DNA of 64,000 nt from Opitutales bacterium (GCA_049599475.1 JBMYOQ010000005.1:26455-90454), one strand, 5' to 3'. Numbered from the stretch's first letter, positions 46,107-54,783 are shown. The notes: generated by a model not told the origin, from the sequence alone. Numbers and translations: made by a program.

Positions 46107-46841
46107 TTATTTGCCCCGCTGGTGGGATTGCACGAGGGCCTTGGCGATTGCGTTTTCCACTCTGTTGCGAGAGTGGTTTATGTTTTGACGAATGCTCTTT
46201 CTGGCAGCTTGCGGGTCTTTGTTCTCAATGGCATCCAATATGGCCAAATGCTCTCCTGCTGTTTCTTGAATGCGGTGTGCATTTGTGATGACCGAAATTT
46301 TTACGAAGCGCAGACGCTCGTTCAAGCTGTGGAGAGAATCGGTGATAGCCTGGTTGTTCAGGCTGTGAGCGAGACCCATGTGGAAATTGGTGTCACCCTC
46401 TACAAGGACTTCCGAATCGACCGTTTCGTCTGCCTGGATCTGCAGCCATTTTTCCCAGAAGCTACGTTGCTCCTGGACCCACTTTGCGTCGAGAGCAGAG
46501 TGGGTTGCCAAGGAATCTACGATAAACAGTTCCAGGGCCATGCGTAGATCGTAAAAGTCTTGGGTCTCTTTCGCGTCAGGTTGAATGACGAAGCATCCCT
46601 GGTTGGGCACCTTTTCCACGAGCTTTTGCTCTACAAGAGCTCGGAGTGCTTCTCGAATGGGGATGCGGCTGGCTGAAAACTCGGCGCAAAGAGATGCCTC
46701 AGAGAGGTGAAAGCCTGGGGGGTAATACCAGCTCAGGACTCGCTTGCGCAGAAGTTCCAAAATCTGCGCATTCGAACGACCGTGCCCGGTGGGGGGCGCG
46801 GTGTCTTTGGGGCGTGTCGCCTGAGTAGAGGGTTCCTGCAT
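46107..46841 (-). CDS. GntR-family transcriptional regulator (FadR/FCD subtype)
   Basis: The winged HTH is LSEASLCAEFSASRIPIREALRALVEQKLVEKVPNQGCFV, followed by a helical FCD-type domain. Confidence 0.85.
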   Translation of the reverse strand: MQEPSTQATRPKDTAPPTGHGRSNAQILELLRKRVLSWYYPPGFHLSEASLCAEFSASRIPIREALRALVEQKLVEKVPNQGCFVIQPDAKETQDFYDLRMALELFIVDSLATHSALDAKWVQEQRSFWEKWLQIQADETVDSEVLVEGDTNFHMGLAHSLNNQAITDSLHSLNERLRFVKISVITNAHRIQETAGEHLAILDAIENKDPQAARKSIRQNINHSRNRVENAIAKALVQSHQRGK

Positions 46842-46901
46842 GGGTACAACTGTCGGTTAAAAATGCTCATCTGCAACTGTGAATCGATTATTTTATAAAA
46901 A

Positions 46902-46922
46902 CGTATACGCTGTTGTATACAA
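46902..46922. promoter_or_regulatory. GntR-type operator candidates: CGTATACG and TTGTATACAA palindromes
   Basis: The perfect palindromes 46902-46909 and 46913-46922 lie in the divergent GntR / TonB-receptor region. TTGTATACAA fits the generic GntR (t)nGT-n-AC(a) pattern. Confidence 0.45.
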
Positions 46923-46979
46923 TGGTATGGGTGCTGCTAAAGCCGAATTGGACAAACTCATTCTTTCCGATTTCTAATT

Positions 46980-51596: not shown

Positions 51597-52277
51597 ATGT
51601 CTCCTGCGCCTGTTAATGCCCAGCCTTTTGAGTTCCATCTGAAGATGGATGAGTGTGCATTCCTCATCATTGATATGCAGCGGGACTTTGTTGAGCCTGG
51701 AGGTTTTGGAGAATCTTTGGGAAATGATGTATCCTTGCTCCGTTCGACAATATTGCCTACGGCTCGGTTGCTGGCTGCATGGCGCGAAATGGGGGGTAAA
51801 GTGATACACACGCGTGAAGGGCATTTGCCGGATTTGTCGGATCTTCCGGAATCTAAGCGCACGCGAGGCAATCCGGAAATTGCGATAGGGGATACCGGGC
51901 CGATGGGCCGCATTCTAATTCGCGGCGAAGCGGGCCAAGGCATCATTCCTGAGTTAGCCCCCGCCGAGGGTGAGTGCGTGATCGATAAGCCGGGGAAGGG
52001 CGCATTCTATAATACGTCTCTCGGAGATTATTTGAAGGCGGAAGGGATCACTCAATTGATTGTTGCAGGAGTGACCACTGAGGTTTGCGTGCACACCACC
52101 GTGCGAGAGGCCAATGATCGCGGATATGACTGCCTCGTATTATCGGACTGCACAGGGTCTTATTTCCCGGAATTTCATGAAATGGCCTTAAAAATGGTCG
52201 TAGCTCAGAGCGGCATATTTGGCTGGGTGTCCGAGAGTGCATCTATCTTAAACGCACTAGATAAATTGAAGGAATAA
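51597..52277 (+). CDS. Isochorismatase-family cysteine hydrolase (BiuH / RutB / N-carbamoylsarcosine-amidase-like)
   Basis: Supporting motifs are LIIDMQRDFVEPGG (Asp), a conserved Lys region, and LIVAGVTTEVCVHTTVREANDRGY (nucleophile Cys). Confidence 0.85.
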   Translation: MSPAPVNAQPFEFHLKMDECAFLIIDMQRDFVEPGGFGESLGNDVSLLRSTILPTARLLAAWREMGGKVIHTREGHLPDLSDLPESKRTRGNPEIAIGDTGPMGRILIRGEAGQGIIPELAPAEGECVIDKPGKGAFYNTSLGDYLKAEGITQLIVAGVTTEVCVHTTVREANDRGYDCLVLSDCTGSYFPEFHEMALKMVVAQSGIFGWVSESASILNALDKLKE

Positions 52278-52283
52278 AACGCG

Positions 52284-53858
52284 ATGACTGATTCCACGAA
52301 TACTTTTAAGCCCAAGCTCTGGGTTCCCGGAGATTGGAATGCATTTTTTGGATACGGGACAAATATTTTGGTAAATGTCCTCACGCTCACAGGCTTATTG
52401 AGATTCGTATTGGGCTTTCCTGACGAGCTTGTTTTCGGTCGAGTATTACCAGCAGTCGGGTTGATGCTTTTCCTGTCCACTTTTTATTATTCCTGGATGG
52501 CGTATCGTCTGGCGAAGGAAACGGGACGCACCGATGTCTGTGCACTCCCATCCGGGCCGGGAGTGGGGCACATGTTTATCTGTGTGTTTGTGGTCATGAT
52601 GCCGATAAAAATGGAGACGGGCGATCCTGTTAAAGCTTGGGAAGCCGGCCTCACCTGGGTGTTTATTCAGAGTTTTGTCCTCGTGATCGGCGCATTCTTG
52701 GGGAAGTGGATTCGTAAGATTACCCCGCGTGCTGCGCTTTTGGGTACTCTCGCTGGGGTCGCGATTACTTTTATCTCAATGCGTCCACTGATGCAGATGT
52801 TCCTCACTCCAGCGATTGGCGTGCTGTGCTTTGTCATCATTATGGCAGGCTGGTTCGGAGGTGTGAAATTCTTCAAGGGAATGCCCGCAGGTTTAGTTGC
52901 CTTGTTGGGAGGCACTGCCATTGCTTGGGGATCTCAATTATTCGGAATGAATCTGGGTGGCTTGTCGCTTGAGGGGGTGACTGACTCTTTGAAATATTTT
53001 GGATTTAGCATTCCGATTCCAGCCCTCGATCATACGTTTTCGGGCTTCGAGTTTTTAGGTATCCTGCTCGTGACTGCGATTCCCTTCGGCCTGTATGATT
53101 TGATCGAAGCGATCGATAATGTGGAGAGCTCCGCCGCAGCGGGAGACCCATATCCTACCAAAAAAGTGCTCTTGGCCGACGGTGTTGTCAGTATGATCGG
53201 TTGCTTGATGGGGAATCCATTTACCTTAGCCGTTTATATTGGGCATCCCGGCTGGAAGGCTATGGGTGGCCGTATCGGCTACACTTTGGCAACAGGTGTT
53301 ATGGTGATTCTGTTGTGCTGGTTTGGTACAGTCTCTGTGATATTGGCCGTCGTGCCGGTTGTCGCAATATTACCAATACTTTTATATATCGGACTCTTGA
53401 TTGGCTCTCAGGCATTTCAAGAGACTCCCGCGCGTCACGCACCCGCAGTGATCATGGCGATGGTGCCGCACATGGCACACTGGGCTGGAGGTATGATCGA
53501 GGGTGCGCTCAATGCAAATGGCATTTTCGAACGCACACCAGAGCTCTACGAGAAGCTCGCTGGGGAAGGTGTATTGCTTCAAGGCCTACACAAAGTCGGA
53601 GATGGTGCAGCGCTCTCTGGGATTATTCTGGCGACGATGACTGTGTTTATCATCGAACGAAAATTACAGTATGCCGCGATTGCTGCCGCGATTGGCGCCG
53701 GCCTGACTTATTTGGGCTTAATGCATGGTCAAAATGTGGGCTGGGCGATGAATCCGAGTATAGCGCTGGGATACTTGATGACGGCTGGGTTTCTTGCCTT
53801 GTGCTCACGCCAGAAACTCGATCCCGTTCCTGAAGACCCACATCACCATGCGTCTTAG
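52284..53858 (+). CDS. NCS2-superfamily (xanthine/uracil/vitamin C permease-like) transporter
   Basis: It is a 12+ TM protein. The N-terminal WVPGDWNAFFGYGTNILVN...RVLPAVGLMLFLSTFYYSWMAYRLAKETGRTDVCALPSG matches the COG2252-related permease group as I recall it. Confidence 0.65.
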   Translation: MTDSTNTFKPKLWVPGDWNAFFGYGTNILVNVLTLTGLLRFVLGFPDELVFGRVLPAVGLMLFLSTFYYSWMAYRLAKETGRTDVCALPSGPGVGHMFICVFVVMMPIKMETGDPVKAWEAGLTWVFIQSFVLVIGAFLGKWIRKITPRAALLGTLAGVAITFISMRPLMQMFLTPAIGVLCFVIIMAGWFGGVKFFKGMPAGLVALLGGTAIAWGSQLFGMNLGGLSLEGVTDSLKYFGFSIPIPALDHTFSGFEFLGILLVTAIPFGLYDLIEAIDNVESSAAAGDPYPTKKVLLADGVVSMIGCLMGNPFTLAVYIGHPGWKAMGGRIGYTLATGVMVILLCWFGTVSVILAVVPVVAILPILLYIGLLIGSQAFQETPARHAPAVIMAMVPHMAHWAGGMIEGALNANGIFERTPELYEKLAGEGVLLQGLHKVGDGAALSGIILATMTVFIIERKLQYAAIAAAIGAGLTYLGLMHGQNVGWAMNPSIALGYLMTAGFLALCSRQKLDPVPEDPHHHAS

Positions 53859-54783
53859 GCCTTTTTATAGCCTGGTTTTTGCTGCCGTACTGGCGGGGCC
53901 GTTGGTGGCACAGCCGGTTTGGCTGGATATGGACCAGCAGGCATTGGATGATGCGTATAATCAGAGTGTATGGGCCGGGAACCTAGAGCAGGTCATTGCT
54001 CGCTTCGATTCGAACAGTGATCGCGCCCGAGCAGCCCTCGGAGCGCCCAAGCGATTCACGTATGGGCAGGAGCCGGATGAAGGTATTGATGTTTATAGGA
54101 CGTCTGCCGATAACGCACCTATTCATATTTTCATACATGGAGGAGCCTGGTTTTTGGGGCGCGCACATGGAAACGCGCATGCGGCTGAGGCCTTCGTGGA
54201 TGCGGGAGTGCATTTTGTAGTTCCTGATTTTTCATCGGTGAAAGATCTTGGAGGCAACCTCGGCGGGATGGTTGCGCAGCTGCGAGCGGCTGTCGCGTGG
54301 GTCTATAAGAATGCGGCGACAGAGTTTGGTGGTGATCCTAACCGAATATTTCTCTCCGGTTTTTCATCAGGAGGCCATCTTGCGTCAGTCCTTGCTACGA
54401 CGGATTGGCCAGCGTTCGAAAAAGGCCTGCCATCTCAAATGTTTCAAGGCGCGGTCCTCTGTAGTGGAATGTATGATCTGTATCCCGTCAGCCTGTCGGC
54501 CCGCAGAGAGTATGTGAATTTCACAGATCAGATTATCGAAGATTATAGCGCATTGAGACAGCTTCATTACCTAAACTGTCCAATCGTGCTGGCTTACGGT
54601 GGATTGGAGTCGCCCGAGTTTAAGCGGCAATCCGAGGTGTTTTATGAGGCACTCACAAAGGCTGAAGTTCCGGTCGAATTGATCGTCGCGGAGCAATACA
54701 ATCATTTCGAAGTGATAGAGACCCTGGGGAACCCGTTCGGGCATTTAGGCAAGGCAGCTCTAGCGCAGATTTTCGGGAAATAG
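53848..54783 (+). CDS. Alpha/beta hydrolase (esterase / arylformamidase-like) with a signal-like N-terminus
   Basis: I prefer the ATG at 53848 (MRLRPFYSLVFAAVLAGPLVAQ). Motifs are IFIHGGAW (oxyanion), GFSSGGH (nucleophile) and a late YNHFEV His. Confidence 0.7.
   Translation: MRLRPFYSLVFAAVLAGPLVAQPVWLDMDQQALDDAYNQSVWAGNLEQVIARFDSNSDRARAALGAPKRFTYGQEPDEGIDVYRTSADNAPIHIFIHGGAWFLGRAHGNAHAAEAFVDAGVHFVVPDFSSVKDLGGNLGGMVAQLRAAVAWVYKNAATEFGGDPNRIFLSGFSSGGHLASVLATTDWPAFEKGLPSQMFQGAVLCSGMYDLYPVSLSARREYVNFTDQIIEDYSALRQLHYLNCPIVLAYGGLESPEFKRQSEVFYEALTKAEVPVELIVAEQYNHFEVIETLGNPFGHLGKAALAQIFGK

Follow-up and report, generated by a model that had tools for sequence, protein, structure and literature searches.

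A 64,000-nucleotide stretch of Opitutales bacterium DNA (GCA_049599475.1, JBMYOQ010000005.1:26455-90454; called the window here, with positions counted from its first letter) carries a gene cluster in which a TonB-dependent receptor (TBDR) and an inner-membrane permease accompany an AtzH::AtzG fusion, an AtzE-family amidase and an isochorismatase-like cysteine hydrolase. Judging from sequence and gene neighbourhood, we moderately favour the view that this cluster is a GntR-repressed operon through which triuret (carbonyldiurea), or an oligo-ureide very close to it, is taken up with high affinity and de-amidated in the cytoplasm. An initial annotation of this DNA had proposed a GntR-linked cluster coupling a TBDR and a permease to AtzE/AtzG/AtzH- and isochorismatase-like enzymes for the use of a nitrogen-rich ureide; that proposal is supported here, and the gene order and coordinates it gave (a divergent GntR gene, then the TBDR, the fusion, the amidase, the hydrolase, the permease and an alpha/beta hydrolase) are reproduced by open reading frame (ORF) listing and profile searches (Table 1). 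The isochorismatase-like enzyme is assigned here to the TrtA type, with triuret as its predicted substrate, and this assignment therefore narrows the substrate much further than that annotation had thought possible.

A hydrolase with the TrtA signature

Among solved proteins, the closest relative of the window hydrolase is TrtA, the triuret hydrolase of Herbaspirillum sp. BH-1 (6XIX; 275.8 bits, 59.2% identity), followed by the biuret hydrolases (BiuH) of Rhodococcus (6XJM; 249 bits, 56.1% identity) and Rhizobium (6AZO; 225 bits). Alignment to 6XIX places the catalytic triad at D26, K131 and C164, corresponding to D24, K129 and C162 of TrtA. The residues that separate TrtA from the BiuH consensus are F35, N41, A134, E160, Y187 and I205, around Q202 (Tassoulas et al. 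2020, PMC7948467), and all seven are found in the window protein (F37, N43, A136, E162, Y189, Q204 and I207). The resulting signature, FNAEYQI, is identical to that of characterised TrtA, and none of the six residues of the BiuH consensus (YYSDTQV) that differ from it is present. The TrtA signature occurs in 96 of 120 collected homologues, and YYSDTQV is found exactly in 20 second-copy paralogues from other loci. In a neighbour-joining tree (no bootstrap) the window hydrolase falls inside the TrtA clade, and the best TrtA match among GTDB representative genomes is 71% identical to it. We conclude that the enzyme is TrtA-type, a predicted triuret hydrolase, and not BiuH-type.

The initial annotation had likened this enzyme to BiuH-type biuret hydrolases, in which case the cluster would mineralise biuret. 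The top NCBIfam match of the protein is indeed the BiuH equivalog (NF050097, 275.7 bits), and identity to Rhodococcus BiuH reaches 56%, but this score lies under the curated cut-off of 370, and the six BiuH-consensus positions (Y, Y, S, D, T and V) read F, N, A, E, Y and I in the window. Moreover, characterised TrtA is ~10^4-fold less active on biuret, and single TrtA-to-BiuH swaps are insufficient to confer biuret activity (PMC7948467). As BiuH makes allophanate directly, a biuret hydrolase would also leave AtzE, AtzG and AtzH without a job. The BiuH label is thus withdrawn, and mineralisation of biuret by this cluster is extremely improbable.

AtzE and its fused AtzH-AtzG partner

TrtA converts triuret to 1-carboxybiuret and ammonia, 1-carboxybiuret having a half-life of ~20 min, and the authors who characterised the enzyme pointed out that AtzEG hydrolyses this compound (PMC7948467). 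It is because the product of TrtA is the substrate of AtzE-AtzG that a route can be read from the cluster. The choice of AtzE over GatA for the window amidase, made initially from sequence, is confirmed: the protein scores 669 bits against NF006631 (cut-off 461) and 644 bits against TIGR02715, compared with 278 bits against GatA (cut-off 481), and among solved proteins Pseudomonas AtzE (6C62) is matched at 452 bits versus 239 for GatA. Its AVKN, GGSSGGS and TNGSIRVP motifs align with the AtzE motifs.

AtzG is the non-catalytic obligate partner of AtzE, and AtzH turns the AtzEG product, 1,3-dicarboxyurea, into allophanate (PMC6219798). In the window an AtzG partner is encoded next to AtzE, as a fusion to AtzH rather than free-standing; the AtzH-like (NTF2-fold) and AtzG-like ('DUF4089') assignments both pass in profile search, at 116.9 bits and, for the C-terminal AtzG-like domain, 45.1 bits (Pfam gathering cut-off 24). 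The closest solved relative of the AtzH domain is AtzH itself (6BJT), whose catalytic and pocket residues include the catalytic Tyr22 and Arg46 and an arginine-rich pocket (PMC6219798). Tyr22, Arg46, Arg63, Arg66, Arg73, Gln106 and Gln108 are kept in the window domain, Tyr takes the place of Phe94, and Arg96 is not retained. The domain also matches the NCBIfam HpxZ model, at 106.2 bits and under the cut-off of 135; HpxX was not reported for the window protein.

Through its fusion to AtzG, AtzH would be tethered to AtzE, an arrangement that suggests channelling of unstable intermediates. The fusion, of 181-195 residues, is found in nearly all TBDR-linked loci, and an exhaustive search of 1.84 billion representative proteins returned 677 AtzH-like matches and ~15 clusters of full-length AtzH::AtzG fusions. 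Other AtzH fusions in public proteins (P0182, P0211, P0148, P0154 and P0163) comprise Amidase::AtzH, AtzH-AtzG-Amidase, AtzH::OHCU decarboxylase and AllG::AtzH. These Rosetta-stone-type fusions support a physical coupling of AtzH to the amidase and a link to the catabolism of urate-derived ureides, OHCU decarboxylase belonging to the urate pathway and AllG to the oxalurate pathway.

Conservation and composition of related loci

Two sets of related loci were compiled: 80 from a TrtA-centred scan of GTDB species genomes, and 80 from a TBDR-centred metagenome scan, which together with the window and loci L030, L033 and L162-L165 gave 87 TBDR-bearing loci. Only loci with enough downstream sequence serve as denominators for the downstream counts. 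Members of the TBDR subfamily are 34-78% identical to the window receptor, and downstream of them AtzH is encoded in 57/58 loci, AtzE in 43/44 (the synteny check for co-occurrence of TBDR and AtzE suggested by the initial annotation), the permease in 23/31, TrtA, accompanied by the permease, in 15/31 and allophanate hydrolase (AtzF) in 9/23. Such a recurrence, in 57/58 independent loci centred on the TBDR, goes far beyond what chance would give, and the arrangement is kept in both Verrucomicrobiota and Acidobacteriota.

The TrtA-centred loci have a different composition. The permease gene lies directly 3' of TrtA in 63/73 of them, and such pairs occur in Alphaproteobacteria, Verrucomicrobiota, Acidobacteriota, a metagenome-assembled genome (MAG) of the Phycisphaerales (Planctomycetota) and a Cellvibrionaceae MAG. 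An AtzE-family gene is present in only 4/80 and a TBDR in only 2/80; many of the other loci encode a BiuH-type paralogue (21/80) and/or AtzF (11/80) beside TrtA, as in the published triuret operon.

An allophanate hydrolase lies within the operon in L030 (an Opitutaceae MAG; 860 bits to NF006043), L084, L087, L092, L093, L100, Horticoccus and Synoicihabitans; the route from triuret to ammonia would therefore be complete there. Three cultured Opitutales strains carry the cluster, Horticoccus sp. 23ND18S-11 and Synoicihabitans lomoniglobus with AtzF and Pelagicoccus sp. SDUM812002 without it, and all three have both the TrtA signature and the operator described below. In TrtA-less clusters the permease gene sits after AtzE or is replaced by a Bmp/PnrA-type ABC transporter. 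The latter applies to a more distant group (TBDR identity 34-39%, a range that includes the Acidobacteriia MAG locus L033): L140, L131, L123, L129, L109 and L132 encode TBDR, AtzH::AtzG and AtzE without TrtA and permease, and with the ABC transporter instead.

The genes of the window cluster differ in their nearest relatives. The TBDR (70-78% identity), permease (75-86%) and alpha/beta hydrolase (56-63%) are closest to those of L082 and L162-L165. The window AtzE is 52-56% identical to its counterparts in these loci and 58-63% identical to those of others, and AtzE, AtzH::AtzG and TrtA resemble the proteins of clusters (L083-L104) whose TBDR is only 43-46% identical. In an AtzE tree (no bootstrap) the window protein stands in a TrtA-containing clade and not with its TBDR sisters. 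This pattern suggests a mosaic history of the window cluster.

The frequent absence of TrtA raises the question of whether the TBDR-AtzH::AtzG-AtzE core acts on another, stable ureide, such as oxalurate, the substrate proposed for Klebsiella HpxXYZ, or a urate- or allantoin-derived compound, with TrtA and the permease as an add-on module that widens the substrate range in some lineages. Around half of the loci have the core without TrtA, accompanied by the permease or the Bmp/PnrA-type transporter, and two AtzE clades roughly track the presence and absence of TrtA; carboxybiuret is not stable enough to serve as an imported nutrient (PMC7948467), so that TrtA-less clusters would either depend on a TrtA or AtzD gene at another place in the genome or have another ureide as substrate. 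The match of the AtzH domain to HpxZ and the AtzH fusions to OHCU decarboxylase and AllG, which tie the family to urate and oxalurate catabolism, point the same way. Yet the HpxZ score of 106 is below the cut-off of 135, and the clusters whose genes were examined contained no oxamate amidohydrolase of the HpxW/GGT type. The extra enzyme that does recur is allophanate hydrolase, even in the TrtA-less L096, L108, L131 and L162, which indicates allophanate, and hence carboxybiuret-type chemistry, as the outcome. In the window and in the three cultured strains, furthermore, TrtA lies inside the operon, between AtzE and the permease. We regard a different stable ureide as rather unlikely, and triuret or a very close relative stays the preferred substrate.

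A conserved predicted operator for the GntR regulator

The divergently encoded regulator matches Pfam GntR (51.7 bits) and FCD (65.6 bits), and orthologues of 46-67% identity are divergent beside the TBDR gene in > 30 related loci. The palindromes noted initially in the intergenic region are real: CGTATACG and TTGTATACAA are present at 46901-46922, and aCGTATACGc and TTGTATACAA form adjacent palindromes at a spacing of 12 bp. Of the 32 loci with a GntR orthologue, 31 have a site of the form nnGTATACnn (TTGTATACAA or a variant near to it) in the GntR-TBDR intergenic region, and several have a second such site 12 bp away, as in the window. Conservation of this site thus provides a strong phylogenetic footprint for the predicted GntR operator, which recurs in the three cultured strains. 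The GntR/FCD protein is the presumed repressor of the operon; without inducer, it would be bound to the TTGTATACAA palindromes between the divergent promoters.

Receptor, permease and accessory proteins

The product of 46980-49436 is a TonB-dependent outer-membrane receptor as judged from its sequence: such receptors have an N-terminal plug, a C-terminal beta-barrel of ~600 residues and a signal peptide, the last being judged by eye here. Plug (32.5 bits) is the only Pfam domain that passes in the window protein; the barrel region gives weak NCBIfam matches to FhuA and ferrioxamine receptor models, and a 74%-identical orthologue in L162 also matches the TonB_dep_Rec_b-barrel family (PF00593). 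Full-text literature searches returned no paper in which a TonB-dependent receptor is connected to triuret or to the pair of biuret and allophanate hydrolase, in agreement with the initial view that TonB-dependent uptake for such chemistry is not known to be described; carboxybiuret and triuret were named together in only two papers.

The TBDR and AtzH genes overlap in relatives; in the window they are separated by a 174-bp spacer that contains a GC-rich hairpin. The predicted fold of 49434-49510 (77 nucleotides, comprising the hairpin and a weaker second stem) has an energy of -25.6 kcal/mol (z = -4.26; 0/200 shuffles as stable), and the terminator scanner reported no site at 49445-49476. The hairpin may be an attenuator or an mRNA-stabilising element, and could set the ratio of receptor to enzyme expression.

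That the 524-residue permease is a membrane protein holds, as initially annotated; the NCS2 label given to it is weakly supported. The protein has no Pfam or NCBIfam match at E values up to 10, and no match among PDB sequences with either a single sequence or a 30-sequence profile. Its AlphaFold model (mean predicted local distance difference test score, pLDDT, 66) gave weak Foldseek matches (E >= 3e-3, TM-scores 0.3-0.38), the top ones being all to 7+7 inverted-repeat transporters (SLC4, SLC26, SLC23/NAT and AZG2). In an hhalign comparison with E. coli AdeP, 100 columns over the AzgA-type motif were co-linear (32% identity, E 0.009, probability 4.6%), which is a local match. Relatives are named 'AGZA family' by JGI and 'regulator' or 'hypothetical' in NCBI records; they are numerous, the > 8000 scored being a lower bound, and no Pfam or NCBIfam model covers the family. 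The permease is therefore best described as a distant AzgA/NCS2-like candidate whose membership of NCS2 stays unproven. Because its gene lies directly 3' of TrtA-type genes in 63/73 loci from several phyla, the family is a candidate for transport of triuret or other ureides.

The last gene of the operon encodes an alpha/beta hydrolase whose family, as first annotated, is upheld by Pfam (BD-FAE, 67.7 bits, and Abhydrolase_3) and by HGGAW and GFSSGGH motifs; the signal peptide attributed to it was judged by eye. Its closest solved relatives are generic esterases, and the assignment is no finer than esterase. Its place in the operon is taken by homologues of 53-63% identity in L163, L164/L165 and L169, L101 gives a partial match, and the homologues of L163, L164 and L169 likewise have signal-peptide-like N-termini. 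Thus, an enzyme of this kind recurs at the 3' end of the operon in the window, L101, L163-L165 and Synoicihabitans. The idea that it and allophanate hydrolase are mutually exclusive functional substitutes after the permease was rejected because Synoicihabitans has both in tandem and because the hydrolase carries a signal peptide. In Pelagicoccus sp. SDUM812002 a different secreted protein of 296 residues, with no Pfam match (L167 10661-11551), follows the permease in place of the alpha/beta hydrolase or AtzF.

Just beyond the 46107-54783 interval of the initial annotation, the gene at 54837-55523 encodes a further member of the conserved neighbourhood, a 228-residue protein with no Pfam or NCBIfam match, for which a word-based search gave one homologue and the AlphaFold model was unusable (pLDDT 37). 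Homologues of 35-36% identity lie 3' of the hydrolase gene in L163-L165, co-directional there and inverted in the window, and a 58-residue partial match falls within a 68-residue ORF of L162.

TBDRs usually serve scarce or bulky ligands, and the imported molecule might accordingly be larger or conjugated, for instance an acylated or esterified oligo-ureide or a metal-ureide chelate. After uptake through the TBDR it would be trimmed in the periplasm by the alpha/beta hydrolase, with the 228-residue protein, and the permease would then carry triuret or a relative. In the window, L101, L163-L165 and Synoicihabitans a signal-bearing esterase-type hydrolase recurs at the operon end, its start codon overlapping the preceding stop, which fits such a scheme, but most clusters have no such hydrolase, among them those of L030, L083-L100, Horticoccus and Pelagicoccus. 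We know of no natural conjugate that would be a candidate, and 'esterase' is as specific as the family assignment becomes. We consider import of a conjugate distinctly unlikely.

Proposed route

If the operon acts on triuret, the compound would be carried across the outer membrane by the TBDR and into the cytoplasm by the AzgA-like permease, the latter step being suggested by its tight pairing with TrtA. There, the TrtA-type hydrolase would remove one terminal amide to give 1-carboxybiuret and ammonia, as expected from its homology to the characterised enzyme and its full specificity signature. AtzE, held by the AtzG domain, would convert 1-carboxybiuret to 1,3-dicarboxyurea and ammonia ahead of decarboxylation to biuret, and the tethered AtzH domain would turn the unstable 1,3-dicarboxyurea into allophanate. 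As a search of the window gave no BiuH, biuret would lead no further, and capture of carboxybiuret by AtzEG would therefore prevent its loss to biuret. The allophanate would be finished by an allophanate hydrolase encoded elsewhere in the genome, or decay to urea. We hold the enzymatic route from triuret through 1-carboxybiuret and 1,3-dicarboxyurea to allophanate with moderate confidence, and are less confident that triuret itself is the ligand of the TBDR.

Several observations weigh against this interpretation. There is no homologue of allophanate hydrolase (AtzF) in the 64-kb window, and the full mineralisation envisaged in the initial annotation is thus not encoded there, although relatives carry this enzyme in the operon. 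About half of the TBDR-AtzH::AtzG-AtzE clusters lack TrtA, including L082 and L162-L165, which have the closest relatives of the window TBDR and permease; the receptor is thus linked with AtzHGE more closely than with TrtA, and triuret need not be its ligand. Triuret is, moreover, small (146 Da, calculated) and neutral, and so presents no obvious need for a TonB-dependent receptor. To our knowledge, a single TrtA has been characterised to date, and it shares 59% identity with the window protein. The strong hairpin between the TBDR and the enzyme genes makes their co-transcription in the window likely rather than certain, and the recurrent secreted alpha/beta hydrolase has no place in the proposed scheme.

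Comparison with known systems

The triuret operon of Herbaspirillum sp. BH-1 and Rhizobium leguminosarum consists of trtA, trtB, biuH and atzF (Tassoulas et al. 2020, PMC7948467). The window cluster shares with it a TrtA-type hydrolase of identical signature and, by prediction, entry at triuret, carboxybiuret as the first product and allophanate as the end intermediate. By contrast, it has neither BiuH nor AtzF, no TrtB-like gene was recognised in it, and its carboxybiuret is predicted to pass through de-amidating AtzEG and AtzH rather than decarboxylation to biuret. It adds the TBDR, the GntR regulator with its conserved operator and the secreted alpha/beta hydrolase. The published operon belongs to plant-associated Proteobacteria, whereas clusters of the window type occur in Verrucomicrobiota and Acidobacteriota.

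With the atzDGEHF genes of Pseudomonas sp. ADP (Esquirol et al. 2018, PMC6219798) the window shares AtzE, AtzG and AtzH and, by prediction, the conversion of carboxybiuret via 1,3-dicarboxyurea into allophanate. The source of carboxybiuret differs, being TrtA acting on triuret rather than AtzD acting on cyanuric acid, as does the gene order, H::G then E with AtzH and AtzG in one polypeptide as opposed to G-E-H. The window cluster has no AtzD, and the whole 64 kb no AtzF; the cluster lies on the chromosome, is controlled by GntR and includes dedicated transporters for both the outer and the inner membrane. As AtzE, AtzG and AtzH are characterised enzymes of cyanuric-acid degradation (PMC6219798), and a planar heterocycle such as cyanuric acid would be a fitting substrate for an NCS2/AzgA-like permease, the cluster might instead form the downstream part of an s-triazine pathway of the atzDGEHF kind, the ring being opened by an AtzD encoded elsewhere. 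However, the window cluster and the related loci whose genes were scanned contain no AtzD/TrzD/barbiturase-type gene, the upstream enzyme that is present within the operon is TrtA-type, and atzG-atzE-atzH clusters are rarely associated with atzD (Esquirol et al.). A cyanuric-acid pathway is, in our estimate, highly improbable.

In Klebsiella, HpxX, HpxY and HpxZ are AtzG-, AtzE- and AtzH-like, and HpxW is an unrelated oxamate amidohydrolase (PMC12625717); the homologous set, initially given as hpxW/X/Z, should accordingly read hpxX/Y/Z. The window resembles these oxalurate genes in that homology and in the scavenging of nitrogen from a ureide. It differs in having no HpxW/GGT-like gene and in HpxZ and HpxX equivalog scores below cut-off, and the described Klebsiella Hpx cluster has no TrtA, TBDR or AzgA-like permease. 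Finally, nitrifier MAGs contain trtA/biuH/atzF clusters with bmpA-nupABC transporters, from which use of triuret and biuret was inferred at the genome level (PMC12625717). These too include a dedicated importer, and TrtA-less relatives of the window cluster use the same Bmp/PnrA-type ABC transporter. Unlike the window, the nitrifier clusters take the BiuH route and are without a TBDR and the AtzE/G/H core.

Gene packing and surrounding genes

The genes from the fusion to the end of the operon are tightly packed (Table 1). The start of AtzE overlaps the fusion stop codon by 4 bp, gaps of 22 bp and 6 bp separate the TrtA-type gene from AtzE and from the permease gene, respectively, and the start of the alpha/beta hydrolase overlaps the permease stop by 11 bp. 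For the fusion, the gene caller chose a GTG start at 49611, and the longest ORF begins at 49512. A promoter and terminator scan gave the same counts as in shuffled sequence.

Table 1 Features of the cluster, with positions in the 64,000-nucleotide window
Feature	Position	Strand	Basis or remark
GntR-family regulator, FadR/FCD subfamily	46107..46841	-	Pfam GntR and FCD; divergent from operon
Predicted GntR operator, two palindromes	46901..46922	.	In 138-bp divergent intergenic region
TonB-dependent receptor (TBDR), 818 aa	46980..49436	+	Pfam Plug; signal-peptide-like N-terminus; no STN domain
GC-rich hairpin, 13 bp	49445..49476	+	RNA fold; 9 nt 3' of TBDR stop
AtzH-like::AtzG-like fusion	49611..50180	+	Both domains above Pfam cut-offs
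AtzE-family amidase-signature amidohydrolase, predicted 1-carboxybiuret hydrolase	50177..51574	+	NF006631; AtzE 6C62 closest solved
TrtA-type isochorismatase-like cysteine hydrolase, predicted triuret hydrolase	51597..52277	+	6XIX closest solved; residue signature; tree
Polytopic inner-membrane permease, 524 aa, proposed ureide importer	52284..53858	+	No family model; adjoins TrtA in relatives
Secreted alpha/beta hydrolase, hormone-sensitive-lipase / BD-FAE type	53848..54783	+	Pfam BD-FAE, Abhydrolase_3; recurrent accessory gene
Secreted 228-aa protein	54837..55523	-	Convergent in window; homologues in closest relatives

An NCBI protein from an Opitutales MAG matches the permease at 100% identity, and the AtzE-like sequence occurs unchanged on a Logan contig with the same genes, which places the window in Verrucomicrobiota, order Opitutales. 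The flanks are unrelated to the cluster. The gene adjoining GntR on the upstream side, which is not conserved along with the cluster, encodes a 675-residue protein with a C-terminal class-3 lipase domain and a long unannotated N-terminal region (43833-45860, minus strand); glycosyltransferase genes are also found on this side. Directly downstream is a nadA-nadC-nadB operon (55722-59230) for quinolinate synthase, QPRTase and L-aspartate oxidase. The remainder of the window encodes glycoside hydrolases, a subtilase, glycosyltransferases and NAD biosynthesis, none of them tied to the cluster. A 1491-residue protein (5091-9566, minus strand) combines GH10 xylanase, Big_7, CBM96 and SASA-type acetylesterase domains and is typical of polysaccharide-degrading Opitutales, and a 694-residue protein (24367-26451, minus strand) shows an unusual pairing of an N-terminal HpiC1-cyclase-like domain (156.8 bits) with a dienelactone-hydrolase-like domain.

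Implications

The enzymes of this cluster belong to known families; their TBDR-coupled, GntR-controlled union, in which TrtA is combined with AtzEG and AtzH through a fusion, was not found described in the literature searched. Catabolism of triuret has been the subject of one biochemical study so far and was described as rare and plant-associated. The cluster suggests a second triuret route, in which TrtA is followed by AtzEG and AtzH and biuret is bypassed, and offers a natural, non-herbicide role for the AtzE/G/H trio, whose physiology beyond Pseudomonas sp. ADP has been unclear. It also nominates as ureide transporters a large, model-less permease family mis-named 'regulator' at NCBI. The regulator-operator pair is testable, and the three cultured strains make the cluster itself directly so.

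More broadly, and tentatively, since we would put this somewhat short of probable, a TBDR with AtzH::AtzG and AtzE, joined by either an AzgA-like permease or an ABC importer of the Bmp type and, optionally, by TrtA and AtzF, could constitute an unrecognised and widespread system for the TonB-energised scavenging of triuret-type oligo-ureides. These compounds may derive from urate oxidation or urea chemistry, and the hosts may be Verrucomicrobiota and Acidobacteriota, free-living members of which would then dedicate an energised receptor and a specific permease to ureide chemistry. If true, the receptor would be the first TonB-dependent receptor for a ureide, the permease would represent a new transporter family for such compounds, and the fused AtzH-AtzG would channel unstable intermediates; triuret-like compounds would then be a real and competed-for nitrogen pool in soils and waters.

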